Shown here: piece after piece, positions 24,302 through 48,965 of the stretch
Layout: every line of letters starts with the position of its first letter
Position numbering within the stretch: position 1 is the stretch's first letter
Assembly (NCBI GenBank): GCA_965202625.1
Contig: CBDBBI010000010.1
Coordinates: 1,019,050 to 1,083,049, forward strand
Reading direction: 5' to 3'
Length of the DNA stretch: 64,000 nucleotides
DNA from: a bacterium
Lineage (GTDB): Bacteria > UBA8248
The notes under the pieces: model-generated
What the model saw: the letters and a program-made list of their open reading frames with translations, nothing else
The model's database searches: none
What the model was told of the DNA's origin: nothing
Translations under genes and position numbers: made by a program

Positions 24302-24304
24302 CAG

Positions 24305-34239: not shown

Positions 34240-34908
34240 ATGCTATCAAAAACATTCGCATCAGGAGTTCTTGTTACGATATTGCTCGTCTCAGGTTGCG
34301 CTGCTCGCCCAAAACCATCGGATTTCACCAAATTCCGCAACGAAAATCCCAGATCGATTCTGGTCGTGCCTGCCATCAACAAGGCCGTTGAAGTCAACGC
34401 TCCAGATTATTTTCTTTCAACTATCTCGAAGCCTGTCGCTGAAAGAGGATTTTACGTATTTCCCGTGAACGTAGTGAAACGTGTAATGGAAGACGATGGT
34501 CTCGCTGATGCGAATTTGGTTCACAATGCCGACCCGAAACGCTTGGGAGAGATATTTGACGCCGATGCCATTCTTTACGTCTCGATAGATAGATGGGACG
34601 CGCAATATATTGTGTTCTCCACCCAGGTGACGGTGGAATTCACTTATGTTCTCAAGAGCGGTCGCACCGGCGAAGAGCTGTGGCGACGAACGGCAAAAAT
34701 GGTGTATTCGCCTCAAAGCAGCACGAATACGGGCAACCCTCTTGCCACTCTCATCATAATGGCGGCCCAGGCAGCTATTACGAAAGCGGCGCCGAACTAT
34801 ATCCCCTTGACCCAACAAGCCAACTTTTTAGCAGTCATTGAACCCGGACAAGGATTGCCCGCAGGCCCTTATCGAAAAGATTATCTGAAAGATCAGGACA
34901 AATTCTGA
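34240..34908 (+). CDS. DUF799-family lipoprotein (GNA1162-like)
   Basis: The start is adjacent to the previous stop (TAAATG). A lipobox LVSGC is followed by ILVVPAINKAVEVNAPDYF, which is typical of DUF799. Confidence 0.6.
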   Translation: MLSKTFASGVLVTILLVSGCAARPKPSDFTKFRNENPRSILVVPAINKAVEVNAPDYFLSTISKPVAERGFYVFPVNVVKRVMEDDGLADANLVHNADPKRLGEIFDADAILYVSIDRWDAQYIVFSTQVTVEFTYVLKSGRTGEELWRRTAKMVYSPQSSTNTGNPLATLIIMAAQAAITKAAPNYIPLTQQANFLAVIEPGQGLPAGPYRKDYLKDQDKF

Positions 34909-34914
34909 AGAACC

Positions 34915-35050
34915 ATAGTCGAAGTCGCTCTCTACTGAGCCGGATAGCCCGGCCCGGAGAGCGTCTCAGCGATCCTCCCCGTCGGCGATGCACGACGTCG
35001 TTCCCCGCAAAATTTTGACCGAGTGCGTCTGAACGGATGGGCGGCGAACA
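34915..35050. repeat. degenerate direct-repeat copy of the 3' end of the prpE-like acyl-CoA synthetase gene (left boundary of the inserted element)
   Basis: It aligns base by base with 42285-42470, beginning atagtcgaagtc... and including ccggatagccc, cgtcggcgatgc and ttccccg.aaaattttg.ccgag. The alignment contains an internal ~50-bp deletion and scattered mismatches. Confidence 0.7.
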
Positions 35051-35306
35051 ACAAGCTGAGGGCGGGACGTGCGCGAACCGGTAATAGGTTTTAGGTTTGT
35101 CCGAAGCCGCAACGCGCGGGCGATGAACACCCTCCGCCAGATGCAGTCTCTTGCTCGTGGATTTCAAGGCAAACGACTGACCTGGCAAGACCTCACGAAG
35201 TGAATCATCCCCATATCTGGGACGCTTGACTCCAAAAATCTACCTCATATCGAGTGAAAAAAGTCGAGAGTTCCGCTGGAGGACCGGAGCTATCGTTGGA
35301 AAGGGC

Positions 35307-36056
35307 TCATGCAGACCGCCTCGTCTGCTCTGCTGAAATATCCATAATACCCTGAGATTTCAATACCTCATCTCTGAGGACTACGCCTACAACGTCCAAG
35401 ACCTGCTTTAACGCAATGCCATTATTATAGGCGGACATTTGCATTGCTTCCCGTGGTATTTTTTCCGTTAAATCATCAAGGAGATTTTCTTGGGCATACG
35501 CAAAGCACATCTCCTGTATTTCGTAGGCATTCTTGTCTTTACCGCTTATTTGTTCCTTTAATGCTTCTGCATATCCCGAAATCCATTCGTTGATTTGTAT
35601 TTCTTCAGCAACCCTTTCCCCCAGTTCGCTGAGCCTGCGCGGGCTATCGGATTCCGTTGTTTCGGGAGGGGGCAATCGCGAAAAAATAGATTTTATGTCT
35701 GCTCGTATTTCCTTTACCTCATTTTTGATTTCGCTTCGTATTGCATTTGTTTCATTTTTGATTTCCGCTCGTATTGCATTTGTTTCATTTCTGATTTCGC
35801 TTCGTATTGCATTTGTTTCATTTCTGATTTCATCTCGTATTTCTTTTGTTTCATTGCTGATTTCATCTCGTATTTCTTTTATCTGATCTCGAATTTCTCC
35901 CATAAATGTCGATATGCTCTCTCCCTTTTCGTTTACTTTTGCAATCCATGTTGCAGCGCGTATTGCAGCCCATATTGCAAGAGCAAAGAGGACGACAATA
36001 ATGAGTAATATATTTCCTTTGAAGGCTTCAAGGAGAAATACGTTGATGGAGCTCAT
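35307..36056 (-). CDS. membrane-anchored protein containing about six tandem 11-aa repeats (NETNAIRSEIR-type coiled-coil)
   Basis: The 249-aa protein has an N-terminal TM helix, then the repeat block EIRDEIRNETNAIRSEIRNETNAIRAEIKNETNAIRSEIKNEVKEIRADIK. The gene's GC content is about 45%, against about 62% for the genome. Confidence 0.6.
   Translation of the reverse strand: MSSINVFLLEAFKGNILLIIVVLFALAIWAAIRAATWIAKVNEKGESISTFMGEIRDQIKEIRDEISNETKEIRDEIRNETNAIRSEIRNETNAIRAEIKNETNAIRSEIKNEVKEIRADIKSIFSRLPPPETTESDSPRRLSELGERVAEEIQINEWISGYAEALKEQISGKDKNAYEIQEMCFAYAQENLLDDLTEKIPREAMQMSAYNNGIALKQVLDVVGVVLRDEVLKSQGIMDISAEQTRRSA
35694..35895. repeat. 33-bp tandem repeat (about 5.5 copies) inside the gene above
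   Basis: Successive copies read gatttcgcttcgtattgcatttgtttcattttt, gatttccgctcgtattgcatttgtttcatttct, gatttcgcttcgtattgcatttgtttcatttct, gatttcatctcgtatttcttttgtttcattgct and further degenerating units. Confidence 0.75.
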
Positions 36057-36529
36057 AGCAAGACCTCACAAAATGAAAGGCATCCTTTGCTATTTGCTAA
36101 CCTGTTGTTTTGGATTTCTTGTCCGCCGCCCGTAAAAATGGATTTAGCGATTTCCTGCGCGGTTGCGGGCAGGGGTTTGATGACGTTCTTCAAAGTCCGG
36201 CCCGGCGACTTTGAAGTGTTCATAGGCGCCCCCCTATGGCGACATATCATGTTCAGGTGAAAAATCCACCTGAGCAAATTTACCATATCACACCTTAAAA
36301 GAAACCTAATTTCATTATCCTTGACAAGTCAAAAACCGTTCTACTATACTCTCGCCTATCGTCAAGCAACTTGCAGAGCGGCCTTGGCTACCGTGTCGCC
36401 TGCCAAACGCAAAACCGCTCCGCGTGGGCGGAAACAGGCAGGAACCCACCACTGGGCTGTGCGTTGTTTGGCGACGGACCCGGCTTTGTCATTAGGCATG
36501 TTTCTTTTTTTCAGGGAGGAGGTCTCAAC

Positions 36530-37195
36530 ATGAAGAGATGGGGATTTCTGTGCGCAGCGGCTGCTCTCATTTTGGTCTTGTCGGCTCCCCTCATGGCAAG
36601 AGCACAAGAGGGGGGAAGTCAACAAGAGGGGGCGGGGAAATGGTATTGGAAATTCAACGTGGGGATATTGTCGCCAAGAGATTTGGAGAGCACCGCACCA
36701 CCCTCACCTACCCTCAACGCGGACATTGATACCGGGGTTTTCGTGAGCACCTCCGTTGGCCGTTCTTTCGGTCGCCTGAGGGGAGAGGTGGAGGTTTTGT
36801 ATGGAGAAGTCGATTACACACTGGACGCAACTACAAGAGGCGTGAACGGAGACGTCGTCGACATCACTCGCATCGGGGGGGAGTTCGCGGAGTTCGAAGC
36901 CAAAATTACGGGGCTGATGTTCAACGCATGGTTTGACCTGGGCGCGAGCGACTGGGCACTCAACCCCTACGTAGGGGGAGGGGTTGGAGTGATGCATCTC
37001 GACGTGCCACGTGGTACCGACAGCGGCTTCTCCTGGCAACTCGGTGCGGGCGCAATTTTTCCCATAGGCAATAATCTGGCACTTGACGCCAGCTACCGGT
37101 TTCTGAACACCGCCTACGAACCTGAAATTTTCTCTATTGTGTATGAGGATATCGAGGCACACGCATTCTTGCTGGGCATCAAGCTCACGTTCTAG
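36530..37195 (+). CDS. outer-membrane beta-barrel protein (OmpW/opacity-porin-like)
   Basis: An RBS GGGAGGAGG precedes the start. The signal peptide is MKRWGFLCAAAALILVLSAPLMA. Alternating-hydrophobic beta strands are present and the C-terminus ends in aromatic LTF. Confidence 0.7.
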   Translation: MKRWGFLCAAAALILVLSAPLMARAQEGGSQQEGAGKWYWKFNVGILSPRDLESTAPPSPTLNADIDTGVFVSTSVGRSFGRLRGEVEVLYGEVDYTLDATTRGVNGDVVDITRIGGEFAEFEAKITGLMFNAWFDLGASDWALNPYVGGGVGVMHLDVPRGTDSGFSWQLGAGAIFPIGNNLALDASYRFLNTAYEPEIFSIVYEDIEAHAFLLGIKLTF

Positions 37196-37210
37196 TCCGA
37201 TTCGCACAAG

Positions 37211-37250
37211 GCCGGCCCCTGCTGATGCGGGGCCGGCTTTTGTTTTTGTG
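37211..37250 (+). terminator. rho-independent terminator after the OMP gene
   Basis: A GC hairpin ggccggcccc-tgctgatg-cggggccggc is followed by ttttgtttttgtg. Confidence 0.6.
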
Positions 37251-37341
37251 CTCGTTGCCCAAGGGAGTCGCCAACCCCAAAAACACCCAGCGGGCACAGG
37301 AATTGCTCGGCAGCGGGGGCCGGGGAGGCAGCTGGCTTTGC

Positions 37342-38103
37342 TTAAGAGGTGAGGAGAGATTTCTCCTGAATGGTTCTTGATGGGTTGATTCCAAACGCTT
37401 GAGGCATTTCAGTCCACGTTCTGCCATCCAGCGTTCGACCCGTCTTTTTCTTGAATACGCCGCCCCATTGCTTGAAGAAAAAAGGCGTGCCGCTGCCCAC
37501 GCAATTATCCCGAATCTCTCGCGCCCAGTCCGGCTCCATGGGCCTTGCGCCCGGACCGCTTTCGCCGCCGACGATGACCCAGTCAATGCCGTCCAGATCC
37601 AGACTCGGCAAGGGTTCAAGCAGCGGCTCAAGAGAGAGAAACTTCGTTCGGGCACCCGTTTGCCGGAGCAGGCGCGCCCGGTTCAGAAAATCCGCAGACT
37701 CAATGCTCGTCCCCAGCCAGATGTTCGGCGTCCAGCGAAGCCGCCGGCTCCACCGGACAGCGCGTCCCGGCCGCTTCGTGAGCACCTGAAACGTGTGCTG
37801 GGTCGCGCGGTTCATCACCCCGAACACGGCCTCAAGGAAGTCCAGCGGCACCGCTCGGTGAAACAGATCGCTCATAGAGTTCACGAAAACAAGGCGCGGC
37901 TTGCGCCACTTCAGAGGCTCTTCCAGAATGGATGGGTGGGTTCTGAGCGAAAAGCCGTCCGCGTACTTGCGGGTCCCCATCCCCTGGAGCCGCCTCGACA
38001 TCCGCGCAGCGTAACAATGCTTGCACCCGGGGCTGATCTTCGTGCAACCGGTAGTCGGGTTCCAGGTGATTTCCGTCCACTCTATGCCGGAAACTTTAGG
38101 CAT
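37342..38103 (-). CDS. phage Gp37/Gp68-family protein (DUF5131)
   Basis: Trimmed to MPKVSGIEWTEITWNPTTGCTKISPGCKHCYAARM, the family's three-Cys N-terminus. The upstream gene's stop lies 2 nt before this ATG. Confidence 0.8.
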   Translation of the reverse strand: MPKVSGIEWTEITWNPTTGCTKISPGCKHCYAARMSRRLQGMGTRKYADGFSLRTHPSILEEPLKWRKPRLVFVNSMSDLFHRAVPLDFLEAVFGVMNRATQHTFQVLTKRPGRAVRWSRRLRWTPNIWLGTSIESADFLNRARLLRQTGARTKFLSLEPLLEPLPSLDLDGIDWVIVGGESGPGARPMEPDWAREIRDNCVGSGTPFFFKQWGGVFKKKTGRTLDGRTWTEMPQAFGINPSRTIQEKSLLTS

Positions 38104-38105
38104 GG

Positions 38106-38846
38106 CTAAATGTGACCCAGAATGTGGCCTGCAATCCGAGTAGCTGGAGCAATTCCCCTGGGGTGGCCTACGCAAAACATAAATTCAAATAGCGCCGAAT
38201 TCTTGGAGTTTTTAAGAGTTCGGGATTTTTCGAGAAACCTGTCTCTAAATAAGCACTTAAGATTTCTTTTGTATATGGAGGTCAGGCCCCCGACGCCAGA
38301 GTCTCTCTCATAATGAAGACCTCCAAATAGATCAGTGTTTTCCTGATACAGGCCTCTCCATCTCTCATCACCGAATACTTTTGTGAGTCGCTCAGCCCAC
38401 TTTGGCTCAACTTCCTCGGGCATTCTTGATTTCGGCAACATCCTAGCAACAGCGGACGTAGGGAAGAGAATCCAGGTATCGAGCACCTTAAGGTTGGCTA
38501 TCTTTTCAATAGTCGCCCATGCAACTTCCGTGGCGAAGCGCCGCTTCGCCGCCGCGTCCGCCGCGCAAAACCCGCTGTCGTGGGCCTCCGAGGTTGCCAC
38601 AATGTGTTCAATGTCCGTCTGGTGCCTGCTGGAAAACGTCCGCCCGGTGTATGGCCCATACGTCCGGCCCCCAAGACCGGCAACGATGCGGGCCTCAAGA
38701 GATTGCGAATACGGATAGTCGCGCCGCTTGTCGTAGGGTGCGCACCGGTGCTCGGGTGCGACCACGAGGCCGCGCCAGGTGTCAGCGGCCCACATGGTTG
38801 CGGGAGTGAGCGCAACGAGAGCGAAAACGAATATACACAAAATCAC
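38106..38846 (-). CDS. secreted DUF1524/HNH-like nuclease-family protein with an uncharacterised C-terminal half
   Basis: The ORF has a GTG start and a signal peptide. The N-terminal half (...HRCAPYDKRRDYPYS...GPYTGRTFSSRHQTDIEHIVATSEAHDSGF) matches the C..PYD / PYTG / DI(D/E)H(V/I)V pattern of DUF1524. It is translationally coupled to the Gp37/Gp68 gene. Confidence 0.45.
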   Translation of the reverse strand: MILCIFVFALVALTPATMWAADTWRGLVVAPEHRCAPYDKRRDYPYSQSLEARIVAGLGGRTYGPYTGRTFSSRHQTDIEHIVATSEAHDSGFCAADAAAKRRFATEVAWATIEKIANLKVLDTWILFPTSAVARMLPKSRMPEEVEPKWAERLTKVFGDERWRGLYQENTDLFGGLHYERDSGVGGLTSIYKRNLKCLFRDRFLEKSRTLKNSKNSALFEFMFCVGHPRGIAPATRIAGHILGHI

Positions 38847-38876
38847 CCTTCATCCACCCCCTTGGTGCCGACCGCC

Positions 38877-39197
38877 TTAACGGTTTCCCTCTTTGCATCG
38901 AACGCGGTAATAGATTCGGCTGCCCGCAGCGCCGAGGTTATATTCCCGAATCACTTTCCGCTCGAAAATCTCGTATCCACCGGGGCACAAGTCGTTGTCA
39001 GTGAGGTAGAGCTTGAGCCTCGATAGTCTGTTGGATTCAGCGGAGGAGCTGTCATGCGGAGTGAGCGGGCCAGCTACCGCCTCGTACTGAAACGTCCCGT
39101 CGGACAATGGCCTGAATCTGGTATCGAATATAGTGTCGTGCGCAGAACAACCCATTAATGCCAGGAACGCAAAAACGGCCAGGCCTTTCGCAAACAT
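38877..39197 (-). CDS. small lipoprotein, copy 1 of a tandemly duplicated pair
   Basis: The start MFAKGLAVFAFLALMGCSAHD is preceded by GGAGGAGG. The protein is about 70% identical to copy 2 and has conserved Cys (DLCPGGYE, RVRCKEGNR). Confidence 0.55.
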   Translation of the reverse strand: MFAKGLAVFAFLALMGCSAHDTIFDTRFRPLSDGTFQYEAVAGPLTPHDSSSAESNRLSRLKLYLTDNDLCPGGYEIFERKVIREYNLGAAGSRIYYRVRCKEGNR

Positions 39198-39255
39198 CGG
39201 CTCCTCCTCCCTCAAAAAGTCCGCGCCATCCAGCACACCTCTCCCAAAACCTCCG

Positions 39256-39335
39256 CACCGCGCGGAGGCGGGATGGGCTCCCACGCCGGATGATCGCTCT
39301 CCAGAATCCACCGCCCCTCCACCCACACCGCGCGC
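39256..39335 (-). pseudogene. orphan fragment of the 3' end of the S24 repressor gene (copy a)
   Basis: The 80 bp are near-identical to 39756-39835 inside the intact repressor gene and would encode ...WVEGRWILESDHPAWEPIPPPR. The fragment is part of a ~485-bp tandem duplication unit. Confidence 0.6.
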
Positions 39336-39363
39336 GGCCACAGCGAACAGGCTGCAGACCGCC

Positions 39364-39690
39364 TTAACGGTTTCCCTCTTTGCATCGAACGCGGTAATGG
39401 ATTCTGTGGGCCAAAGCGTCGGAGCCATATTCCCGAATCGCTATCCGCTCGAAAACCTCGTATCCACCGGGGCACAAGTCGTTGTCAGTGAGGTAGAGCT
39501 TGAGCCTCAATAGTCTGTTGGCTTCAGCGGAGGCACTCTTCGGCGGATAGAACGGGCCAGCTACCGCCTCGTACTCAAACGTCCCGTCGGACAATGGCTT
39601 GAATCTGTGATCGTATCCAGTGATGCGCGCAGTAGTACAACCCATTAATGCCAGGAACGCAAAAACGGCCAGGCCTTTCGCAAACATCAT
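39364..39690 (-). CDS. small lipoprotein, copy 2 of a tandemly duplicated pair
   Basis: The start MMFAKGLAVFAFLALMGCTTARI is preceded by GGAGGAGG. The gene lies directly 3' of the repressor gene on the same strand. Confidence 0.55.
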   Translation of the reverse strand: MMFAKGLAVFAFLALMGCTTARITGYDHRFKPLSDGTFEYEAVAGPFYPPKSASAEANRLLRLKLYLTDNDLCPGGYEVFERIAIREYGSDALAHRIHYRVRCKEGNR

Positions 39691-39701
39691 CTCCTCCTCC
39701 C

Positions 39702-40478
39702 TCAAAAAGTCCGCGCCATCCAGCACACCTCTCCCAACACCTCCGCCCCGCGCGGAGGCGGGATGGGCTCCCACGCCGGATGATCGCTCTCCAGAATCCA
39801 CCGCCCGTCCACCCACACCGCGCGCTTGACCAGCAAGCCATCCTCGCCGCGCACCACGAATATCCGTCCGCTGTGCAGGTGCTTTTTTTTCATGTCAATG
39901 AGAATGGAGCAACCCGCCGGCAGCGTCGGCTCCATGGATTCGCCCGCCACGCGGATGATGCGGCACTGGGCGGCCTCCAGCCCTTGCTCCCTCAGCCACT
40001 CCGCGCGAAACGCCAGACGTCCCGCCACCGTCTCGCTGTCCGCCTCCGCACCGCCTCCCGCCGCCGCGTCCACCTCCACGATTTCCACGTGACGGAAATG
40101 GAAAGCGTCCGTATTTCCGGCGGCCTCCGATTCTGCCGCGTCGCGCAATTTGTCCAGGGTACCGGCCGCATCGCGCAAGCGGGAGAGCTCCGCATCGAAA
40201 GCCTCCTCCAGCATTCGCTTCGCCGAGCCCTCCTGGAGTGCCGCCGCCCCTGATGCATCGGGCACCCCTGATGCACCGGGTGGGGCGACGAGAGGAAATT
40301 CAATGCCCAGAGCTTCGCAAATCTGGGCGGCGCGCCCGATAGAAGGTTGCTGTCCGTCCAGGATTCCCTGGAAACTTCGCACAGGAATCCCCGCACGCAT
40401 TGCCGCCGCGCGTACGGACTCACCATTCCTTGCGAGGTGATCACGAACATCTTTCACAAACCGTTCCCTTACTCCCAT
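39702..40478 (-). CDS. XRE-family HTH repressor with C-terminal S24 (LexA/cI-type) peptidase domain
   Basis: Trimmed to MGVRERFVKDVRDHLARNGESVRAAAMRAGIPVRSFQGIL, which contains the HTH. The C-terminus ...RVAGESMEPTLPAGCSILID...LLVKRAVWVDGRWILESDHPAWEPI is the S24 Ser/Lys fold. Confidence 0.8.
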   Translation of the reverse strand: MGVRERFVKDVRDHLARNGESVRAAAMRAGIPVRSFQGILDGQQPSIGRAAQICEALGIEFPLVAPPGASGVPDASGAAALQEGSAKRMLEEAFDAELSRLRDAAGTLDKLRDAAESEAAGNTDAFHFRHVEIVEVDAAAGGGAEADSETVAGRLAFRAEWLREQGLEAAQCRIIRVAGESMEPTLPAGCSILIDMKKKHLHSGRIFVVRGEDGLLVKRAVWVDGRWILESDHPAWEPIPPPRGAEVLGEVCWMARTF

Positions 40479-40575
40479 GTGGCAATGTATAGCATATTGT
40501 GCCCCCAAATTGCCATTGGCATTATAATGCAAATATGGGCTTGACATCTTGGCGTAATAAAGCCATATTGGCCTT
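40479..40575. promoter_or_regulatory. divergent intergenic control region between the cI-like repressor and the cro-like gene, with candidate operator palindromes
   Basis: Palindromes tgccattggca (40511-40521) and gccatattggc (40562-40572) are present. Plus-strand hexamers TTGACA (40543-40548) and TATAAT (40523-40528) are also present. The region is AT-richer than its flanks. Confidence 0.35.
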
Positions 40576-40824
40576 ATGACGCCAAACCAGATCATCCACC
40601 TTATAGACGTCATGGCCGAGGCGACCGCCCGAAGCCCGCACACGCTCGCCCGCTACGCTGCCGGCTCCGGAGATTTCTACGCGCGCCTGAAGGTTGGACA
40701 CGACATCACGACCCGCCGCGCCGCGCGCGTCGTTCAATGGTTCTCCGATCAATGGCCCTCCGACCTGGAGTGGCCGTCGGACGTTCCCCGCCCTGTGCCG
40801 AAAGCGAAGGAGAGTGCCGCGTGA
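40576..40824 (+). CDS. small hypothetical protein divergent from the repressor (cro-like position)
   Basis: The ORF is 82 aa. The true start may be the internal ATG at 40612. Its stop overlaps the GTG of the next ORF (GTGA). Confidence 0.35.
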   Translation: MTPNQIIHLIDVMAEATARSPHTLARYAAGSGDFYARLKVGHDITTRRAARVVQWFSDQWPSDLEWPSDVPRPVPKAKESAA

Positions 40825-41579
40825 GCGGGTGCGATCTGCGGGTGATAACGGAGGAATCCCCCCCCGTTTCGCCGGCGAAACAGGCACACGAAGCGCCGCG
40901 GCCCCTCTTTCATGAAGGGCTTGGGCGGGATCGCTGGGCGGAGATCGGGCGCGATCTTTCCCACTGGGCGGAGAACACGCAATGGGAAATGGGAGAATGG
41001 GCTCTGTTTGGGGAGGCGTCTTTTGGCGAGAGGACGCTGCGGGAGGTGGCGTCCGGTCTGAAAATCAGCGCGGGCAAACTGTCCAACTGCCGACTGGTCG
41101 CCAAGAATTTCCCCGCGTTTCGCCGGCGAAACGCCTTGAGTTTTTCTCACCATCTCGAAGTGGCGCGCCTGCCGCAAGCGGAGGGCGACGAAATTCTCGC
41201 CCGCGCCGAGGCGGATGGATGGACGCGAGAGCAGATTCGGAAGGAAGCGCGCGAAGCGCGGGCGGCGGTGCTGGCGTGCCTGGTGCGCGAGAACGAGGCG
41301 CTTCGCGCGGAGAATGCGCGGCTCAAAACCACGCCGGCGGCGGCGAAGGATGCGGCGCGCGACCTGGAGAGACGCGCGAAGGCCGCCGCCCGAAAGGTGA
41401 GCGCGGCGTTTGCGGACCTCGCGCGGGTACTGGGCGAGGCGGGTGCATCGGCGGAAATCACAGGTTTGCACGGCAACGCGCGCGCGGCACTCGACGCGCG
41501 CCTGAAACGCATCGTGTGCTCGGCTGGAAGGGATGCGGCCGGCGTGCAGATGCGCTTCACTTTCGGGGCGGGCGAATGA
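40821..41579 (+). CDS. hypothetical protein with coiled-coil C-terminal half
   Basis: The ORF is 253 aa from the GTG at 40821 and has typical high-GC codon usage. Its stop overlaps the next ATG (ATGA). The longer track ORFs 40737 and 40982 are N-terminally over-extended. Confidence 0.4.
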   Translation: MSGCDLRVITEESPPVSPAKQAHEAPRPLFHEGLGRDRWAEIGRDLSHWAENTQWEMGEWALFGEASFGERTLREVASGLKISAGKLSNCRLVAKNFPAFRRRNALSFSHHLEVARLPQAEGDEILARAEADGWTREQIRKEAREARAAVLACLVRENEALRAENARLKTTPAAAKDAARDLERRAKAAARKVSAAFADLARVLGEAGASAEITGLHGNARAALDARLKRIVCSAGRDAAGVQMRFTFGAGE

Positions 41580-42235
41580 ATCCCCACGCCCGTGAAACCG
41601 CCCAGCAACCCTCTTTCATCGCCCTGGAAACGCCCGAAAAACTCCCTTGCAACGACCTGGAAACCGCCTGGAACGCCGCCACGGACGCCCAGAAAGAGCG
41701 CGCCGTCAAGCGGCTGCGTGCGGTCGAGCGTTCCGAGGCTTTGGCGGCGGAGGGGATAGTGCGCGCGGAGGCGGACGGAATAGCGGCACTTGAATGCGGC
41801 GCGTCCAAATCCGCCGTCGCCACCTGGCGGCGTCGCGCACGAGGTGCGGGGCGGGGAGATAGACTGCGCACGCTTCTTGACGCACCGGGGCGCGGACGGC
41901 CGCGTGCAGAATGGACGGGCACGGCGGCGGAGACGCTCTGGACGCTGTGGCGCACGGACTGGCTCCGAGAGGAAGCACCGGATGCGGCGGCGGCACATCG
42001 GCGGGTGGAGGCGGTCGCCCAGGCGCGGGGCTGGGAATGTCCGCCCCTCCAGGCGTTCACCCGCAGGGTGCGGCGCGAGGTTTCCCGCCGCGAAGTCGTA
42101 CGCGCGCGCAAGGGTGCCCTCGCCGCCATGAACACCTCGCCCCACCAGACGCGAAGCGTGGAGGCGGGATGGGCTCCCACGCCGGATGATCGCTCTCCAG
42201 AATCCACCGCCCCTCCACCCACACCGCGCGCTTGA
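41576..42235 (+). CDS. hypothetical protein whose C-terminus is read through an antisense copy of the repressor 3' end
   Basis: The ORF is 220 aa from the ATG at 41576 and shares a frame with the tail of track ORF 40982..42235. The last ~25 codons lie inside repeat copy c, so the gene may be 3'-truncated or fused. Confidence 0.35.
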   Translation: MNPHARETAQQPSFIALETPEKLPCNDLETAWNAATDAQKERAVKRLRAVERSEALAAEGIVRAEADGIAALECGASKSAVATWRRRARGAGRGDRLRTLLDAPGRGRPRAEWTGTAAETLWTLWRTDWLREEAPDAAAAHRRVEAVAQARGWECPPLQAFTRRVRREVSRREVVRARKGALAAMNTSPHQTRSVEAGWAPTPDDRSPESTAPPPTPRA

Positions 42236-42247
42236 CCAGCAAGCCAT
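42158..42247. repeat. third copy (c) of the S24-repressor 3'-end repeat, abutting the right boundary of the inserted element
   Basis: The sequence gaggcgggatgggctcccacgccggatgatcgctctccagaatccaccgcccctccacccacaccgcgcgcttgaccagcaagccatc matches 39756-39842. Confidence 0.65.
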
Positions 42248-42302
42248 CTCGGTAGAGGCACACGTCGGCTTTTGTTCTTGTTCAATAGTCGAAGTCCCTC
42301 CT

Positions 42303-44198
42303 CTACTTCCCCGGATAGCCCAGGCCGGCGAGGGTCTCGGCGATCTCGGGCAGGATGGCCGGGTCGTCAATGGTGGCAGGTGCCTTGTATTCCTCGCCGT
42401 CGGCGATGCGCGACATCGTTCCCCGTAAAATTTTGCCCGAGCGCGTCTTGGGCAGGCGCTTCACCACTGCCGCCTGACGGAATGCGGCCACGGCGCCGAT
42501 CTGGCGGCGCACGAGCTGCACCACCTCGCCGACGACCTCCGCATCCTCCCTCTCAACGCCCGACGTCAAGACCAGAAAACCGAGGGGAAGCTGGCCCTTG
42601 AGCTGATCCTTCACTCCGATGACGGCACACTCCGCCACGTCGGGATGCGAGGTCAACACCTCCTCCATCGCGCCCGTGGAGAGCCTGTGGCCCGCCACGT
42701 TGATGATGTCGTCCGTCCTCGACATCACATAGACGTAGCCCTCCTCGTCCACGTAGCCGGCATCGCCCGTTTTGTAGAAGCCCGGATATTCGCTCAGATA
42801 GGAATCGACAAAACGCGCGTCCGCGTTCCAGAGGGTGGGGAGACAACCGGGCGGCAGGGGCAGTTTGACGCACAGCGCGCCCATCTCGCCCGCACCCAGT
42901 GCGCGGCACTCGCTGTCGAGAACCCGAAAATCGTAGCCGGGAACGGGCTTCGTGGGGGAGCCGTATTTGACGGGCAGATGCTCGATTCCGATGGAGTTCG
43001 CCAGCATCGGCCAGCCGCTCTCCGTCTGCCAATAGTGGTCGATGACGGGAACCCCCAGCTTATCCTCCGCCCACTGCACCGTGTCCGGGTCGGATCGCTC
43101 CCCCGCCAGAAAAAGGGTGCGGAAACAGCCGAGGTCGTAATTTCGCATGAGTTCAGCGTCCGGATCATCGCGCTTGATAGCGCGAAACGCCGTGGGCGCC
43201 GTGAACAAAACCTTCACCCCATGCTCGGAGATGACGCGCCAGAAAGCGCCTGCGTCGGGCGTGCCCACGGGCTTGCCCTCAAACAGGATGGTCGCGCAGC
43301 CGTGGAGCAGCGGCGCATACACGATGTAGGAATGCCCCACCACCCAGCCTACGTCGGACGCCGCCCAGAACACCTCGCCCGGCGCCACGCCATACACGTT
43401 TCGCATCGACCACTTGAGCGCCACCATGTGGCCGCCGTTGTCTCGAACCACCCCCTTGGGCTGTCCCGTCGTGCCCGAGGTGTAGAGGATATAAAGGGGG
43501 TCCGTGGCGGCGACGGGAACACAGGCCGCAGGCATCGCGCCCCGCAGCGCATCGCCCCATTCGACGTCGCGGCCCTCGATGAGCTCCGCCTCCGCCTGGG
43601 CGCGCTGCAGGATGACGCACTTCTCCGGCTTCACGCTCGAGAGGTTGATCGCCTCATCGAGCAGGGGCTTGTAGGCGATGACGCCCGAGGGTTCCACTCC
43701 GCACGAGGCGGATATCATGAGTTTCGGCTTTGCGTCCTCGATCCGCGCCGCCAGCTCGTTCGGTGCGAACCCGCCGAAGACGACCGAGTGCACCGCGCCG
43801 ATGCGCGCGCAGGCGAGCATGGAGATCGCCGCCTCGGGTACCATCGGCATGTAGATGATGACGCAGTCGCCCTTCTCCACCCCCAGGGATTTGAGCGCGC
43901 CCGCGAAATGCGCCACCTCGCGCAGCAACTCCCCATAGGTGAACTTTCGGGCAGGCGCACCCGTGATGGGGGTGTCGTATATCAGGGCGAGTTGATCCGC
44001 GCGTCCCGCCTCGACGTGACGATCCAGTGCGTTGTAGCAGGTGTTGACCTCGCCTCCTGCGAACCAGCGATAGAAAGGAGGGCGGGAATCATCCAGCACC
44101 CTCTCCCATCTCTTGTGCCAGTGCACGTCCTCCGCCGCCTCCGCCCAGAACGCCTCCGCGTCCAAGAGAGAGCGGGCGTGAACCTCTGCGTAGCCCAT
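42303..44198 (-). CDS. prpE: propionate--CoA ligase / acetyl-CoA synthetase family (AMP-forming)
   Basis: The 631-aa protein has an N-terminus like PrpE (EAFWAEAAEDVHWHKRWERVLDDSRPPFYRWFAGGEVNTCYNALDRHV), the AMP-binding motif YTSGTTGQPKGV and the C-terminus RLPKTRSGKILR. Confidence 0.85.
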   Translation of the reverse strand: MGYAEVHARSLLDAEAFWAEAAEDVHWHKRWERVLDDSRPPFYRWFAGGEVNTCYNALDRHVEAGRADQLALIYDTPITGAPARKFTYGELLREVAHFAGALKSLGVEKGDCVIIYMPMVPEAAISMLACARIGAVHSVVFGGFAPNELAARIEDAKPKLMISASCGVEPSGVIAYKPLLDEAINLSSVKPEKCVILQRAQAEAELIEGRDVEWGDALRGAMPAACVPVAATDPLYILYTSGTTGQPKGVVRDNGGHMVALKWSMRNVYGVAPGEVFWAASDVGWVVGHSYIVYAPLLHGCATILFEGKPVGTPDAGAFWRVISEHGVKVLFTAPTAFRAIKRDDPDAELMRNYDLGCFRTLFLAGERSDPDTVQWAEDKLGVPVIDHYWQTESGWPMLANSIGIEHLPVKYGSPTKPVPGYDFRVLDSECRALGAGEMGALCVKLPLPPGCLPTLWNADARFVDSYLSEYPGFYKTGDAGYVDEEGYVYVMSRTDDIINVAGHRLSTGAMEEVLTSHPDVAECAVIGVKDQLKGQLPLGFLVLTSGVEREDAEVVGEVVQLVRRQIGAVAAFRQAAVVKRLPKTRSGKILRGTMSRIADGEEYKAPATIDDPAILPEIAETLAGLGYPGK

Positions 44199-44716
44199 GC
44201 CTTCTCCTTCCAGGGAAAACCTGTATCTTTATTTTCATGATCACGTGAAGACGCATCATACCAAACTCCGCCTCTGCCTGCCTGGAGGATTCTTCGCAGA
44301 TGCACAAACCCTCGACGCGCGCGACGCCGCCAGTCCCGAACCCATCATCAAAAACGGGATGGCGAGGCCCCATAATAAAACCCCATGCGCACTCGATGCA
44401 CACCCCTTGCATCGTTTGTGCAACGCCCTTTCCCGCCCCCTGAAACGGCGGGTTTTCCAGGGGATTTTCTTCTGAAAAACCGGCGCATTTTTCACCCGTT
44501 CGCAATGATTTTCATCGGGCCAGAGCGGCGAGAAAACGATTTCGCCAAGGGAGGCACCGCATTTCAAGCGATAGGCGTTGCGCACGGACGCCTCCAGGTC
44601 GAGAATTTCGTCTTTCACGGACATTTTTTTGCGCCTTTCGCCCAGGTCATTTTTTGCTATACTTCTCCCCATGGTGTTTGCTTTCGTGAGTTGCTCTCAT
44701 TCCAAAGGGGCGATCC

Positions 44717-45175
44717 ATGGCGTCATCAGAGACGAAAGCGGCACCTGACGGGCGGCGCGGCTTCATCGCCACCCTCTTTATGCTTGGCGGCCTCATCGTC
44801 AGCTATGGAACGGCCGCCGTCTATGGATTGCGCTATCTTTTCGGCAGGCAGCTTCCTCCCCGCATGACGCAAGTCCTCACCGCCACCCTTTCCGCCATCC
44901 CCGACGGCGGAAGCATCATCGGGAGCGATCTGTCGGGCAGAAAATTCCTGCTCGTGCGCGCGGGCGATACGGTGCGCGCGTTTTCCACCGCCTGTACCCA
45001 TCTGGGATGCCAGGTCTATTGGCAGGACGAGAAGAAGGTGTTCTTCTGTCCCTGCCACAACGGCTTCTTCGACGCCGACGGCAACCCCACGTCGGGGCCT
45101 CCGCCCACACCGCTCGCCCAATACCCCGTCGAAATACGCGGGACGAGCATTTTCGTCACCATGCCCGAGGCCTGA
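44717..45175 (+). CDS. Rieske [2Fe-2S] subunit of a cytochrome bc-type complex, with Tat signal
   Basis: A twin-arginine motif RRGFIATL is present. The cluster boxes are CTHLGC and CPCHNG. Confidence 0.85.
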   Translation: MASSETKAAPDGRRGFIATLFMLGGLIVSYGTAAVYGLRYLFGRQLPPRMTQVLTATLSAIPDGGSIIGSDLSGRKFLLVRAGDTVRAFSTACTHLGCQVYWQDEKKVFFCPCHNGFFDADGNPTSGPPPTPLAQYPVEIRGTSIFVTMPEA

Positions 45176-45178
45176 GCC

Positions 45179-46234
45179 ATGAACAGCCGGATTCCGCGCT
45201 GGGTCGGAGAGCGAATTCCCTTCGACTGGGATCACCTCAAGCACATCACGAGCGAACCCATTCCGCGTCACCTGAAAAAATGGTGGTTTTGCGTGGGCGG
45301 AACCCCGCTGTATCTGTTCCTCATTCAAATCCTCACGGGCATCGCCCTCACCTTCTACTACGTGCCCGAGCCGGGCAAGGCGTATGAATCGGTGCGCCAC
45401 ATCACCGAGGCGGTCCCCTTCGGCTGGTGGGTTCGCGGAATACACCGCTGGGCGGGAGAGCTGATGGTGGTGACCGTCATCCTGCACATGATGCGGGTAT
45501 TCTTCACGGGTGCGTATCGCAAACCCCGCGAGATCAACTGGCTCATCGGCATGGGACTTCTCATCACCATATTCACCTTCGGCTTCACGGGCTATTCCCT
45601 GATCTACAACCAACTCTCTTACTGGGCGACCGTGGTGGGCACCAACATCGCCGCAGCGGTGCCCGTGGCAGGCCCCTATCTCGCCGGCTTCATCCGCGGA
45701 GGGCCCGTCATCAGCGCGAACACGCTGACGCGCTTCTACGTGCTCCACATCGGCATTTTGCCGACCACCGCCTTCATCCTGCTCGCCCTCCACATCTTTT
45801 TCATCCGCATTCACGGGGTGAGCGAATTCATCGACCCCCGCGACGAGGAAGCGAAAAAAGACCGATTTTTCCCGTTTTTCCCCGATCACCTCCTGACCGA
45901 AGTAGCCCTTGGGGTTTTTCTCATATTTCTGGTCAGTCAGCTGGCCATCATCTTTCCCGCGCAGATGGGCGCGCCGGCGAATCCGGCCATCACGCCTGAA
46001 CACATCAAGCCTGAGTGGTATTTCTACCCGGTGTTCCGCTGGCTGAAGCTGTTCTCCTTCGAGACGGGCATCATCGGCGCAATTCTCATCGTCATCGTCA
46101 TGTTCGCCTGGCCCTGGGTGGACGCCGCCCTGGAACGCCGGGCGCCCGGGCGGGACGTCAGCATATACGTGGGGGTGCTCGCCGTCCTCGCCATGACGAT
46201 ATTCATGATCATCGAGGGCCTTTCAGGCCACTAG
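45179..46234 (+). CDS. cytochrome b (b6 plus subunit-IV-like fused, 351 aa)
   Basis: Multi-TM protein with conserved haem-ligating His in helices B and D and the PEWY-like segment IKPEWYFYP. Confidence 0.85.
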   Translation: MNSRIPRWVGERIPFDWDHLKHITSEPIPRHLKKWWFCVGGTPLYLFLIQILTGIALTFYYVPEPGKAYESVRHITEAVPFGWWVRGIHRWAGELMVVTVILHMMRVFFTGAYRKPREINWLIGMGLLITIFTFGFTGYSLIYNQLSYWATVVGTNIAAAVPVAGPYLAGFIRGGPVISANTLTRFYVLHIGILPTTAFILLALHIFFIRIHGVSEFIDPRDEEAKKDRFFPFFPDHLLTEVALGVFLIFLVSQLAIIFPAQMGAPANPAITPEHIKPEWYFYPVFRWLKLFSFETGIIGAILIVIVMFAWPWVDAALERRAPGRDVSIYVGVLAVLAMTIFMIIEGLSGH

Positions 46235-46258
46235 GAATAATGAGGAAGGGAGGAACTC

Positions 46259-47599
46259 ATGCAGTTGCGAACGAAGCAATGGATAGTCGCAATTTTAAGC
46301 TTGTTCTTTCTGGGTTCCCTGATCACCGTCGGTCTGATTGAGAGTGAGCGCCTCGTGCCCGAGCGGGCGAGGAAGACCGTCGTCACCGCCAAGAACGAAG
46401 GCTGCGTGAATTGCCATACGGAGAAATCGCCGGGCATCGTCGCCCAATGGCAGGACAGCCGACACGCGGAGATCGGCGTGGGCTGTCTGGACTGCCACGA
46501 AGCCCAGAAAGAGGACAAGGACGCCTGGCAGCACGAGGGCTCTCTGGTGGCCGTCATCGTATCGCCGAAGGATTGCGCAAAATGCCACGCCCAGCAGGCG
46601 GAGGAGTTCACGGCCAGCCACCACGCGAAGGCGGCGCAGTTCATCGGCAGCCTGGACAATTTTCTGGGCGTCGTGGTCGAGGGCGTGCCCGCGGCGGTGG
46701 GCGGATGCCAAAAATGCCACGGCTCCACCGTGAAGGTGCTTGCGAACGGCAGGCTCGACCCCGCCACCTGGCCCAACACGGGCATGGGGCGCATCAATCC
46801 GGACGGCAGCAACGGCGCATGTTCCGCCTGTCACGCGCGGCACCAATTCTCGCCCGCGCAATCGCGGCGTCCCGAGAACTGCGGAAAGTGCCACATGGGG
46901 CCGGACCATCCCCAAATCGAGATTTACGAGGAATCCAAGCACGGCATCGTCTTCCACGCGCGCGTGAAAGAGATGAACCTGGACAGCAAAAGCTGGGTGG
47001 TCGGCAAGGACTACACGGCGGCGCCCACCTGTGCGACGTGCCACATGAGCGCGGCGCCGAACCTGCCCACCACCCACGACGTGGGCAAGCGCATCAGCTG
47101 GACGCTGCGGCCCGTCATATCGAAGAAACTCTCCAACTGGGAGCAAAAGCGGACGGACATGAAAAAGGTGTGCGGGGCCTGCCATGGACCGGCGTTCGTC
47201 AACGCCTTCTACACGCAATACGACAACGTCATCCACCTCTACAACGAAAAGTTCGCCATTCCGGCGCAAAACATCATGAAGGAGCTCAAAAAGGAGAAGA
47301 AGCTCACCTCCACCCCGTTCGATGAGAAAATCGAGTGGACCTTCTTTGAGCTATGGCATCACGAGGGACGTCGCGCGCGGATGGGCGCGTCGATGCAGGG
47401 GCCGGACTACACGCAGTGGCACGGATTCTACGAGGTCGCCAAGCACTTCTACTTCAAGTTCCTGCCGGAGGCGGAGGAGCTGCTGCCCGGCGTGAGCGAC
47501 AAATTCGTGAAGGGCCAGCACCACGCCTGGCGCAAGGGAATGAACAAAGAGCAGATTCAGAACATGCTCGATTTCTATCAGACGCGCTACGGGCAATAG
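46259..47599 (+). CDS. membrane-anchored octahaem c-type cytochrome
   Basis: An N-terminal TM helix is followed by eight CxxCH motifs: CVNCH, CLDCH, CAKCH, CQKCH, CSACH, CGKCH, CATCH and CGACH. Confidence 0.8.
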   Translation: MQLRTKQWIVAILSLFFLGSLITVGLIESERLVPERARKTVVTAKNEGCVNCHTEKSPGIVAQWQDSRHAEIGVGCLDCHEAQKEDKDAWQHEGSLVAVIVSPKDCAKCHAQQAEEFTASHHAKAAQFIGSLDNFLGVVVEGVPAAVGGCQKCHGSTVKVLANGRLDPATWPNTGMGRINPDGSNGACSACHARHQFSPAQSRRPENCGKCHMGPDHPQIEIYEESKHGIVFHARVKEMNLDSKSWVVGKDYTAAPTCATCHMSAAPNLPTTHDVGKRISWTLRPVISKKLSNWEQKRTDMKKVCGACHGPAFVNAFYTQYDNVIHLYNEKFAIPAQNIMKELKKEKKLTSTPFDEKIEWTFFELWHHEGRRARMGASMQGPDYTQWHGFYEVAKHFYFKFLPEAEELLPGVSDKFVKGQHHAWRKGMNKEQIQNMLDFYQTRYGQ

Positions 47600-47663
47600 A
47601 AAAAGCCGAGGGGCCAGCGCAAGAGAGGGCGGTTTTGCGTCCGCCGATTTCGGAATGCGCCTC

Positions 47664-48965
47664 TCAAAGTTCGACGACGTCCATGGCGTCCGGATTGAGA
47701 ACCCGGGGGCCATTCTCCTCGACGATCACCTGGGGGCCGAACACCAGGAAAATCCTGTCCTCATGGGCGGCCTTCACCTCGACGGCGAGCGTCATGCCCG
47801 CCTGGACCTCAAAATCCTCCAAAAAACCATAGCGATCGCCCGCCAGGGCGCGCCATTCGGGGTTCTCGGCCAGGCTCCCCTCCACGAAGGCCTCGCGCCA
47901 GGGAGAATCTCTGGGAATATCGCCCGCGCATATCGTCGTCAAGGGCGGCTCGATGCCGTCGATTCCCACGCCGTGCACCTGGGGAATCTCGTGGTAATAT
48001 CCGCCCCGCAGCACCGCCTCGCTGGATGCGCGATCCACTTCGGACCATGCCGTCCCCGGCTTGAGGGCTTCGAGTGCGGCGTGGAGACTTTCCCGCACCG
48101 CCTCGCGCAGCGGCTTGTATTCCGCATCCATCCGGCCGAGCGACATGGAGGTATGCGGATGGCTCCAGTAGCCTCCATAGCGCGCGTAATAGCCGATGCA
48201 CAGCATATCTCCCGAGCGGAGAACCCTGTCCGTGGGCCTTCTGTTCACCGGATAGCCCTTGCCCGAGCAGAGGATCAGCCAGTTGTCGCGGCCCGGCTCC
48301 GCTCCCGCCCGCAGGCTCGCGTTGAAAAGCGCGGCGTATATCTCGTTCTCCCTGACGCCCGGGCGGCAGCATCCGAGCACGGTGTCTATCTCCAGGTTCA
48401 CCATCTCCGCCGCTTTTTCCATCATCGCGATCTCCTCGGGGCTCTTCACCATGCGAAGGCGCGTGAGGATGTCCGAGGCGTCCGAGAACGCGCCATCCGG
48501 CAGCAGGCGCTTGAGATTCTGATACGTCATGTAGGGAATCGCGCCCTCAGCGCCGTATCCGCCGCCGATCAACCCGACAATCCCTATGTTGCCCCGCTCG
48601 TAGCCCAGCTCCTTGACGGCGTCGGAGGCTACGACGCTCACCTTGCCCTCGTGTCCCCGGTAGCGCACCCCCTCGAAGCAGGAATCCGTGTACCACTTGC
48701 CCCAGTTTTGCAGGAGCCAGAAGGTGACGGGCGATCCCTTGCGGGGGAAGACCATGCTGCGCTCCCCATAATCCCCTCCGTCGAGCCATCGGGCGTTGCC
48801 GTTGCCGTTCATCCCGCGCCCCACGATGATGAGGCAGTCAAGCCCTCGCGCATCCATCGCGGCGCGAGTCGCGTCCCACCTTCTGTCGCGCTCCCGGGTC
48901 GAGAACGCGGCCGCGGCATCGCCCAGACGACCATCTTTCGGAAAAAACCTCGGGTCGGTCACCAT
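47664..48965 (-). CDS. M24-family metallopeptidase (Xaa-Pro aminopeptidase/creatinase-like)
   Basis: The 433-aa protein has a creatinase N-like domain and a pita-bread fold (HGVGIDGIE, EAGMTLAVE). Confidence 0.7.
   Translation of the reverse strand: MVTDPRFFPKDGRLGDAAAAFSTRERDRRWDATRAAMDARGLDCLIIVGRGMNGNGNARWLDGGDYGERSMVFPRKGSPVTFWLLQNWGKWYTDSCFEGVRYRGHEGKVSVVASDAVKELGYERGNIGIVGLIGGGYGAEGAIPYMTYQNLKRLLPDGAFSDASDILTRLRMVKSPEEIAMMEKAAEMVNLEIDTVLGCCRPGVRENEIYAALFNASLRAGAEPGRDNWLILCSGKGYPVNRRPTDRVLRSGDMLCIGYYARYGGYWSHPHTSMSLGRMDAEYKPLREAVRESLHAALEALKPGTAWSEVDRASSEAVLRGGYYHEIPQVHGVGIDGIEPPLTTICAGDIPRDSPWREAFVEGSLAENPEWRALAGDRYGFLEDFEVQAGMTLAVEVKAAHEDRIFLVFGPQVIVEENGPRVLNPDAMDVVEL

Follow-up and report, generated by a model that had tools for sequence, protein, structure and literature searches.

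Operons that join a Rieske/cytochrome b module to an octahaem cytochrome c (OCC) have been met in several bacterial lineages, and one of them, consisting of three genes, occupies positions 44717–47599 of the 64,000-nt stretch of contig CBDBBI010000010.1 analysed here (hereafter the window). In Nitrospira the arrangement has already been described and is biochemically uncharacterised (PMC6311188); its OCC gene is expressed in the absence of ammonium (PMC12342949). Caldithrix abyssi carries Rieske and cytochrome b genes (Cabys_2558/2557) together with an "epsilon-Hao" gene (Cabys_2556) beside nap, for which an electron route from quinol through Rieske/cytochrome b to the octahaem protein was proposed, and the organism reduces nitrate to ammonium without NrfA (PMC5317091). 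Moreover, b6f-like operons with an atypical octahaem cytochrome occur in Nitrospina gracilis, Kuenenia and Methylomirabilis (PMC3578206), and the HAO-like protein Kuste4574 of Kuenenia, the activity of which is unproven, co-migrates with its Rieske/cytochrome b complex (PMC12485887, PMC12954380). Global surveys of ammonifiers rely on nrfA plus onr and handle IhOCC and HAO as outgroups (PMC10716430).

The three genes of the window are read here as encoding a membrane-bound quinol:nitrite oxidoreductase, in which the OCC, anchored by a transmembrane helix, replaces cytochrome c1 or f and is itself the terminal enzyme, with nitrite reduction probably forming ammonium and probably coupled to a Q cycle; the probability of this reading is put at about 0.6. 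An earlier note on this DNA, written from the letters alone, had presented the locus as a bc-type complex in which cytochrome c1 is replaced by a multihaem partner, and this is borne out by the gene organisation, the family assignment of the OCC and the co-conservation of the genes. The note had also called the class only partly characterised, and the family is indeed described in genome papers but biochemically uncharacterised (PMC6311188). The arrangement is, however, less novel than the note implied, being already in the literature (PMC6311188, PMC5317091, PMC3578206).

The genes follow one another on the plus strand in the order Rieske, cytochrome b, OCC, with gaps of 3 nt and 24 nt, the latter including a strong Shine-Dalgarno sequence (GGGAGG). 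Because both flanking genes lie on the opposite strand, the trio forms a self-contained unit. All three open reading frames (ORFs) were found where the earlier note had placed them, and its descriptions of the products held as well: a Rieske protein with a Tat signal, a cytochrome b of the fused b6/subunit-IV type and an octahaem protein with an N-terminal membrane helix. A census of CxxCH motifs in all six frames of the window (77,855 aa of ORF segments) returned nine, of which eight belong to the OCC and one to a DUF255 thioredoxin-like ORF. The haem-motif cluster of the OCC is far beyond chance. No gene for a c1- or f-type monohaem cytochrome was found in the operon, where the OCC takes the third position, and there was no candidate for one in the 64-kb window; following the census, the absence of such a cytochrome, which the note had claimed, therefore holds for the whole window.

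Relatives of the OCC were collected in a scan of one genome per GTDB species, from which the best 80 loci were taken. The OCC has relatives in at least 594 GTDB species genomes and its family comprises more than 8000 protein clusters; the best 80 loci span Acidobacteriota, Nitrospirota, Planctomycetota, Myxococcota, Bacteroidota, Cloacimonadota, Gammaproteobacteria and others. At 71 loci there was enough sequence upstream of the OCC for the context to be judged, and at 25 of these, from more than 8 phyla, a Rieske and a cytochrome b gene lie directly upstream on the same strand (23 complete, 2 cut by contig ends). A search from the cytochrome b side gave 3605 homologues at E 1e-30 or better, and the five diverse loci reached in this way (Nitrospinaceae, Calditrichaeota, Poribacteria-like, Wallbacteria and KSB1) all repeat the gene order Rieske, cytochrome b, OCC, the OCC matching PF13447. 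This comparison of operon context had been proposed in the earlier note; its outcome is a membrane-anchored cytochrome with co-conserved partner genes and not an unrelated soluble one.

The closest genome among the matches listed is a 2.9-Mb chromosome of a metagenome-assembled genome (MAG; OZ244906.1, locus L001), with identities of 86% for the OCC, 81% for cytochrome b and 77% for Rieske. It is syntenic, keeping the three-gene order plus the flanking CoA ligase and M24 peptidase genes. The nearest named relatives among the matches listed are Nitrospinota/Nitrospinaceae MAGs (69–78% identity), and the OCCs of Nitrospira moscoviensis (L057) and of Calditrichaeota, Poribacteria, Wallbacteria and KSB1 MAGs (L082, L083, L084, L085) are 53–57% identical to that of the window. 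The arrangement, which the note had called characteristic of some anaerobic respiratory chains, is not limited to these, since the aerobic nitrite oxidiser N. moscoviensis has it too.

The octahaem cytochrome and its active site

The OCC has exactly eight CxxCH motifs (residues 49, 76, 106, 150, 188, 208, 258 and 305), into which all 16 of its cysteines fall, and a single N-terminal hydrophobic helix at residues 9–27 (helix 3–32 in the AlphaFold2 model). It matches the Pfam HAO family PF13447 with 101.3 bits against a cutoff of 21.9. Its best sequence match in the PDB is 4QO5 (E 1.9e-46 with the single sequence, 3.6e-67 with the family profile), followed by HAO, HOX and HDH with E values of about 1e-20 to 1e-32. 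The entry 4QO5 is IhOCC, the octahaem nitrite reductase of Ignicoccus hospitalis, a member of the HAO clade without the P460 cofactor (PMC9250108).

The structural comparison was made by Foldseek with an AlphaFold2 model built from 34 homologues (pLDDT 82.5, pTM 0.75), which has three long C-terminal helices at residues 311–345, 357–379 and 385–408. The best match in the PDB was again 4QO5 (TM-score 0.72) and the second-best the nitrite-reducing Kustc0458 (6H5L, 0.60), with HAO, HOX and HDH at 0.51–0.56, all at a probability of 1.00. ONR reached 0.36–0.38 (E about 1e-2), NrfA was weaker than ONR, and Otr and MccA gave no match. No CxxCK motif, the lysine ligation of NrfA and ONR, no CX15CH motif as in MccA and no Cu-site signature is present in the OCC, and neither sequence nor fold of Otr (1SP3) or MccA (4RKM) was matched in the PDB searches at E ≤10. 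The score with PF02335 was 17 bits, below the cutoff of 24, and that with the hydrazine dehydrogenase equivalog NF052343 was 95.8 bits, far below the cutoff of 900; neither an equivalog nor a subfamily model covering this OCC family exists in NCBIfam. Hence the OCC belongs to the HAO clade and is IhOCC-like; it is not of the ONR/NrfA, Otr or MccA type. The profile comparison suggested in the earlier note, which had left the family undecided, thus ended in a PF13447 match. Members of the family appear in public records under the names "multiheme c-type cytochrome", "cytochrome C552" and "hydroxylamine dehydrogenase"; in papers on Nitrospira the protein is termed "ONR", although its fold is not that of the TvNiR-type ONR.

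The active site was located by a HMMER alignment to N. europaea HAO (NeHAO) in mature numbering, in which Asp267/His268 fall at VDH. This distal pair of NeHAO aligns with D216/H217 of the OCC (259-CATCHSGVDH-268 versus C208GKCHMGPDH217), and Tyr334 (RWANY) aligns with R284. All three residues are invariant in the alignment A1 and in 82/82 homologues of the genome scan. By homology, the putative catalytic haem is that of the fourth motif, C150QKCH154. A shorter OCC homologue (402 aa) is encoded in the Nitrospinaceae MAG GCA_018673115 (L081:7160-8368); it has Val in place of Asp216 and misses the RMGASMxGPDYTQWHGFYE segment; the gene may have decayed, carry a frameshift or encode a functional variant.

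An important question for any member of the HAO clade is whether it has the tyrosine that is cross-linked to the catalytic haem in oxidative enzymes. In HAO fragments, the cross-linking Tyr467 sits in HVNPGGWTYTEGW. Alignments by hhalign, run in default, permissive and global modes, were confident only up to OCC residue 352 and gave contradictory placements beyond it. A manual three-way register was therefore used, anchored on the helix pattern IExxxxE...RxGx[AS][MH] common to the OCC, IhOCC and HAO, and this places Tyr467 in the loop after OCC helix 368–379. The residue opposite Tyr467, at low alignment confidence there, is the invariant W387 in the ungapped register or Y384 if a three-residue gap is allowed; IhOCC has W and F at the positions of Y384 and W387. 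When the C-terminal segments of the OCC and IhOCC were searched against the PDB, no HAO alignment came up in the cross-link region, and an AlphaFold2 model of the HAO C-terminal fragment (pLDDT 31) gave no usable placement of Tyr467. The invariant Y440, offered as the equivalent of Tyr467 by a low-confidence global alignment, was rejected, being two helices past the loop that follows the IExxxxE...RxGxA helix.

Of the 82 homologous loci, 69 have Tyr and 13 have Phe at position 384, and Phe also stands there in 14/34 members of A1 and in both OCCs that are followed by nap genes (L082, napD; L084, napD-napA). A cross-link through the phenolic oxygen would not tolerate Phe, so the OCC family appears to have no conserved cross-link tyrosine. 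Lack of this tyrosine is accepted as the genomic hallmark of reductive HAOs (PMC8042395), and the family is accordingly predicted to consist of reductases; for the window protein itself, the alignment leans towards "no cross-link".

The same residues bear on the opposite direction of catalysis, in which the OCC, as a P460-type enzyme with a Tyr cross-link, would take electrons from hydroxylamine, hydrazine or a related compound and send them toward the quinone pool. Tyr384 lies in GPDYTQW, which resembles GGWTY467TEGW of HAO and falls topologically in the same loop in the manual register. However, this position is Phe in many relatives, as counted above, and Trp in the cross-link-free IhOCC (PMC9250108), and the ungapped register sets Trp387, not Tyr384, opposite Tyr467. 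Moreover, a Rieske/cytochrome b complex is unlikely to work as a quinone reductase, and no amo or hzs genes are present in the window. An oxidative module is thus hardly credible.

Partner subunits, gene neighbourhoods and proposed function

The Rieske subunit starts with a twin-arginine motif (RRGF) followed by one transmembrane helix at residues 17–35 (a signal-anchor), and has box I, CTHLGC, at residue 93 and box II, CPCH, at residue 111; the RR motif and both cluster boxes are kept in homologous loci. Its best NCBIfam match is the b6f-type Rieske, under cutoff, and its first and second PDB matches are the b6f-type Rieske 8hn2 and the Kuenenia Rieske 9rk4. Cytochrome b has 7 predicted transmembrane helices and four His ligands of the b haems, H89/H103 in helix B and H190/H205 in helix D, the spacing in helix D being of the b6 type (an extra residue). 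The Qo motif is PEWY (KPEWYF), and it is kept, as are the His pairs, in homologues of the window type. Cys38, in WWFCVGG, occupies the position of the haem-ci Cys of b6: its FCVGG aligns with YCLGG of cyanobacterial b6, the Cys of which (b6 Cys35) binds haem ci covalently. It is kept in most cytochrome b homologues of the window type and is, by alignment, a predicted site for haem ci.

The best PDB match of cytochrome b is the cyanobacterial cytochrome b6 7r0w_I (191 bits). In NCBIfam, ExtP, from a selenite/tellurite-reduction operon, scores highest (229 bits, cutoff 290), followed by b6 (220 bits), both under cutoff. The ExtP score would fit an OCC that reduces a substrate other than a nitrogen compound, for example sulfite, tetrathionate, selenite/tellurite or metal ions. 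So would the promiscuity often seen in multihaem reductases and the lack of any nitrogen-cycle context in the window; nevertheless, the OCC has neither match nor signature of MccA or Otr, as described above, and the neighbours in relatives are nap and amt, not sulfur or selenium genes. Such a substrate is very improbable.

The Rieske/cytochrome b modules found with the OCC fall into two subtypes. Type A, to which the window belongs, has a canonical Rieske box I, PEWY and the haem-ci Cys, and typically NapA directly downstream. Type B, found in Nitrospira (L054, L056-L060, L065) and in two Desulfobacterota-like MAGs (L006, L013), has CTDLGC in place of box I (Asp for His), PPWY and no haem-ci Cys, and typically Amt directly upstream; in N. 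moscoviensis (L057) the Rieske gene lies at about 6346-6792. Since Asp replaces the first His ligand of [2Fe-2S], the motifs of type B point to an atypically ligated cluster, together with an altered Qo site. By tblastn, a genuine NapA was located immediately downstream of the OCC at 7/14 type A loci, plus L084 and the truncated L042 (the named NapA loci are L017, L019, L021, L026, L029, L032, L052 and L084), and Amt directly upstream of the Rieske gene at 8/9 type B loci (L054, L056-L060, L006 and L013). The napA genes after the window-type subtype suggest dissimilatory nitrate/nitrite respiration, and the ammonium transporter before the Nitrospira-type subtype suggests assimilation. At 14 loci, a gene for an outer-membrane porin of the Alginate_exp family lies beside the Rieske/cytochrome b-OCC(-nap) cluster (for example, L050:5121-6455 and L084:11617-13053); this porin may be a channel for nitrate/nitrite entry.

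Apart from the Rieske/cytochrome b module, the OCC occurs in three other arrangements. At six gammaproteobacterial loci (L049, L061, L062, L063, L066, L077) a NapC/NirT tetrahaem gene follows directly downstream, at three loci (L073, L074, L079) tetrahaem, 4Fe-4S and NrfD genes do so, and most Acidobacteriota loci show no obvious partner. The N-terminal transmembrane helix is kept in nearly all copies, whatever the partner. The exchange of one quinol dehydrogenase for another, of NapC/NirT or NrfCD type, marks the OCC as the terminal catalytic unit.

This is relevant for the view that the OCC is an electron-transfer subunit only, a multihaem substitute for c1 or f that has no catalytic site and feeds NapA, oxidases or extracellular acceptors. 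Multihaem cytochromes indeed stand in for c1 in many bc-type complexes (PMC3578206, PMC12954380), and in many relatives the NapA encoded directly downstream would need an electron donor where NapC is absent (PMC5317091). The Asp-His pair and Arg284, invariant across 82 homologues from many phyla, would nevertheless be hard to explain in a pure wire, the family also occurs with other modules or alone, in the manner of terminal enzymes, and the window, which has no nap, and the Nitrospira loci still keep the OCC. A purely electron-transferring OCC is, consequently, quite improbable.

The identity of the product is a separate matter. IhOCC reduces nitrite and hydroxylamine, and Kustc0458 (6H5L) reduces nitrite (PMC9250108, PMC8042395). 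Within the same architecture, the OCC might be a one-electron nitrite reductase forming nitric oxide (NO), or a reductase detoxifying NO/hydroxylamine, and not an ammonium-forming enzyme. Kustc0458, second among the structural matches, makes NO from nitrite and also reduces NO and hydroxylamine (PMC8042395), Kuste4574 of the anammox Rieske/cytochrome b complex was proposed to make NO (PMC12485887, PMC12954380), and Rrf2-type (NsrR-like) regulators lie near six loci of the family. On the other hand, the closest relative, IhOCC, and the epsilon-Haos reduce both nitrite and hydroxylamine, with IhOCC listed among the octahaem nitrite reductases (PMC9250108, PMC8042395). In Nitrospira, the link to amt, together with expression without ammonium (PMC12342949), favours ammonium as the product, as does the conversion of nitrate to ammonium by C. 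abyssi, a carrier of the cluster that has no NrfA (PMC5317091). At the five loci inspected from the cytochrome b side, no gene for an NO reductase was seen next to the operon. Overall, an NO-forming or detoxifying role is unlikely.

In the quinol:nitrite oxidoreductase proposed here, quinol would be oxidised at the Qo site (PEWY) of the b6-type cytochrome b. One electron would pass to the [2Fe-2S] cluster of the Tat-exported Rieske protein and from there, no c1 or f being present, into the haem chain of the HAO-family OCC, whose own N-terminal helix would hold it at the side of the complex. Through seven bis-His haems the electrons would reach a five-coordinate fourth haem (C150xxCH154) with D216/H217 and Arg284 in its pocket. 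This haem would be the site of periplasmic nitrite reduction, for which the six-electron product ammonium is the most likely, as with IhOCC and epsilon-Hao. The second electron would travel over haems bL and bH, possibly also haem ci on Cys38, to the Qi site. Nitrite reduction would thereby be coupled to a Q cycle and electrogenic, unlike that by NrfH/NrfA. What the sequences show is the gene organisation, the family assignments, the kept ligands and motifs, the co-conservation and the nap/amt context in relatives. The association of the OCC with the Rieske/cytochrome b dimer, the substrate, the product, proton translocation and the respiratory as opposed to assimilatory role are points that we infer.

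Several observations weigh against this assignment. No nap, nar, nir, nrf or amt genes were found in the 64-kb window, and therefore nothing local links the window copy to nitrogen metabolism. About 65% of the OCC loci have no adjacent Rieske/cytochrome b genes; therefore, the pairing is not obligatory for the OCC. The window OCC has Tyr384, and neither alignment nor modelling fixed the equivalent of Tyr467. For the Rieske/cytochrome b-OCC family as a whole, the presumed substrate and product rest on homology and gene neighbourhood. Enzymes of the HAO family are typically trimers and Rieske/cytochrome b complexes dimers, which weighs on the stoichiometry of the complex. AlphaFold3, moreover, failed to dock Kuste4574 onto its complex (PMC12954380), and NO, not ammonium, is formed by Kustc0458, which is the nearest reductive HAO with known biochemistry (PMC8042395).

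A bolder version is that the three-gene module is the minimal form of a stoichiometric supercomplex, with the OCC docked directly on the Rieske protein, carrying out electrogenic, Q-cycle-coupled reduction of nitrite to ammonium, and thus a third ammonification route beside NrfA and ONR. We regard this version as tentative, with the odds somewhat against it. If true, such a route would exist in at least several hundred species of many phyla and would be unseen by surveys of dissimilatory nitrate reduction to ammonium based on nrfA/onr (PMC10716430). With Q-cycle coupling, the energy yield of nitrite ammonification in the carriers would be higher than assumed, and the genetic capacity of soils, sediments and aquifers to retain nitrogen would be underestimated.

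Surroundings of the operon in the window

The features of the operon and its direct neighbours are listed in Table 1.

Table 1. Coordinates of the Rieske/cytochrome b-OCC operon and of the features next to it (positions in the window)
Feature	Position	Strand	Remarks
Propionate/acetate-CoA ligase gene	42303-44198	-	flank, opposite to operon
Upstream region shared with divergent CoA-ligase gene	44199..44716	.	518 bp; presumed promoter location
Rieske [2Fe-2S] subunit, 152 aa	44717..45175	+	PF00355 47.5 bits
Cytochrome b, 351 aa, fused b6 + subunit IV	45179..46234	+	PF00033 176 bits, PF00032 46 bits
Membrane-anchored OCC, 446 aa, HAO family, IhOCC-like subclade	46259..47599	+	PF13447 101 bits, eight CxxCH
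GC-rich hairpin between convergent OCC and M24-peptidase genes	47605..47618	-	terminator-like scan
M24 peptidase gene	47664-48965	-	flank, opposite to operon

The scan of the upstream region found no sigma-70-like promoter. This region and its equivalent in the closest relative, L001, which is about 250 bp shorter, do not align and show no conservation at the DNA level; a possible small ORF lies within it on the minus strand (44440-44627, MSVKDEILDLEASVRNAYRLKCGASLGEIVF...). The hairpin behind the OCC gene looks like a terminator for the minus-strand gene, and neither the terminator-like scan nor the sequence after the OCC stop revealed a plus-strand terminator for the operon. Long antisense ORFs over the operon (44726-46003 and 46295-47269, minus strand) were ignored as shadow frames of high-GC DNA. 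Neither the Rfam nor the tRNA scan had a hit of relevance to the operon.

Elsewhere, the window carries genes for a methylmalonyl-CoA mutase (684 bits), a tungsten-type aldehyde:ferredoxin oxidoreductase and a CoxS/L/M-type molybdenum hydroxylase cluster (11056-14631, 23837-27510). Together with the propionate-CoA ligase adjoining the operon, these genes hint at an organic-acid-oxidising, facultatively anaerobic lifestyle.

A degraded Mu-like element is situated just upstream of the CoA-ligase gene, in the region 36000-42300. It includes a DUF5131 phage protein (37342-38175, minus strand), an S24 repressor of the CI/LexA type (39702-40643, minus strand) and an ORF (41600-42235, plus strand) of which only the Mu transposase I-gamma DNA-binding subdomain is left. 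Within the element, a tandem duplication of about 490 bp (38866-39825) holds two paralogous small lipoprotein-like ORFs, and a 93-nt repeat is present in three copies (39260, 39750 and 42156), the third of which truncates the MuA-like ORF. Adjoining this remnant, the GC content falls to 47.5% at 34000-36000, compared to 55–66% elsewhere, which suggests foreign DNA or a mosaic/chimeric assembly.

Comparison with known systems

The locus opens no new category; genome papers have mentioned combinations of Rieske/cytochrome b with an HAO-like octahaem cytochrome since 2013-2017. It is of value as a clean minimal example of a very widespread, biochemically uncharacterised module, and the comparative data yield targets for biochemistry: the nap-linked and amt-linked Rieske/cytochrome b subtypes and the NapC-type and NrfCD-type partners.

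Compared to cytochrome b6f/bc1, the window module has the Rieske boxes, the four His ligands of the b haems, the b6-type spacing in helix D, PEWY and a Cys at the haem-ci position. In contrast, its b6 and subunit IV are joined in one polypeptide, cytochrome f or c1 is missing, and the c-type subunit is an eight-haem enzyme.

The OCC operons of N. moscoviensis and N. japonica (the OCC being "ONR" in some papers) have the same three genes in the same order and strand as the window. The identities between N. moscoviensis (L057) and the window are 55–56% for the OCC, 39% for cytochrome b and 35% for Rieske, and the Nitrospira OCC keeps the eight haem motifs plus D216/H217/R284. The role proposed there is that of a periplasmic nitrite reductase linked to the quinone pool (PMC6311188, PMC12342949). 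Nitrospira differs in having CTDLGC, PPWY and no haem-ci Cys where the window has canonical ligands, and its cluster adjoins amt in a nitrogen-assimilation region, whereas that of the window has no nitrogen-related neighbours.

The Rieske/cytochrome b-OCC-napA operons of Calditrichaeota, Wallbacteria, Planctomycetota and Myxococcota share the Rieske/cytochrome b subtype of the window (PEWY, Cys, canonical boxes). For these Caldithrix-type relatives, identities to the window are 52–57% for cytochrome b and 54–57% for the OCC, as compared through a homologue from a Calditrichaeota MAG and not through Cabys_2556 itself. The difference lies in their physical linkage to napA/napD; the window and L001 have the bare three-gene module between the CoA ligase and the M24 peptidase.

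By both sequence and fold the best match of the OCC is IhOCC (Igni_0955, 4QO5), in which the haems are arranged as in HAO and the P460 cross-link is missing (PMC9250108). It is nevertheless archaeal, longer (521 aa, with insertions) and about 24% identical in the Foldseek alignment. IhOCC was found in soluble and membrane fractions, with no Rieske/cytochrome b partner reported in PMC4429474.

The R/b-3 complex of Kuenenia stuttgartiensis (Kuste4569-4574) likewise combines a b6f-like Rieske/cytochrome b with an HAO-like OCC replacing cytochrome f; its subunits co-migrate experimentally. R/b-3 has split b6 and subunit IV, an extra hexa/octahaem subunit and an NAD(P) oxidoreductase, and these extra genes are absent from the window operon. 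In addition, electron bifurcation to NAD(P)+ and NO production were proposed for it.

Finally, NrfHA/NrfABCD and epsilon-Hao resemble the proposed enzyme in that a quinol dehydrogenase of the membrane is coupled to a multihaem nitrite reductase in the periplasm. NrfA and ONR differ by the CxxCK catalytic haem and by belonging to another clade and fold (TM-score ≤0.38 to the window OCC). The NrfH route is not electrogenic, whereas a Rieske/cytochrome b partner could add a Q cycle.

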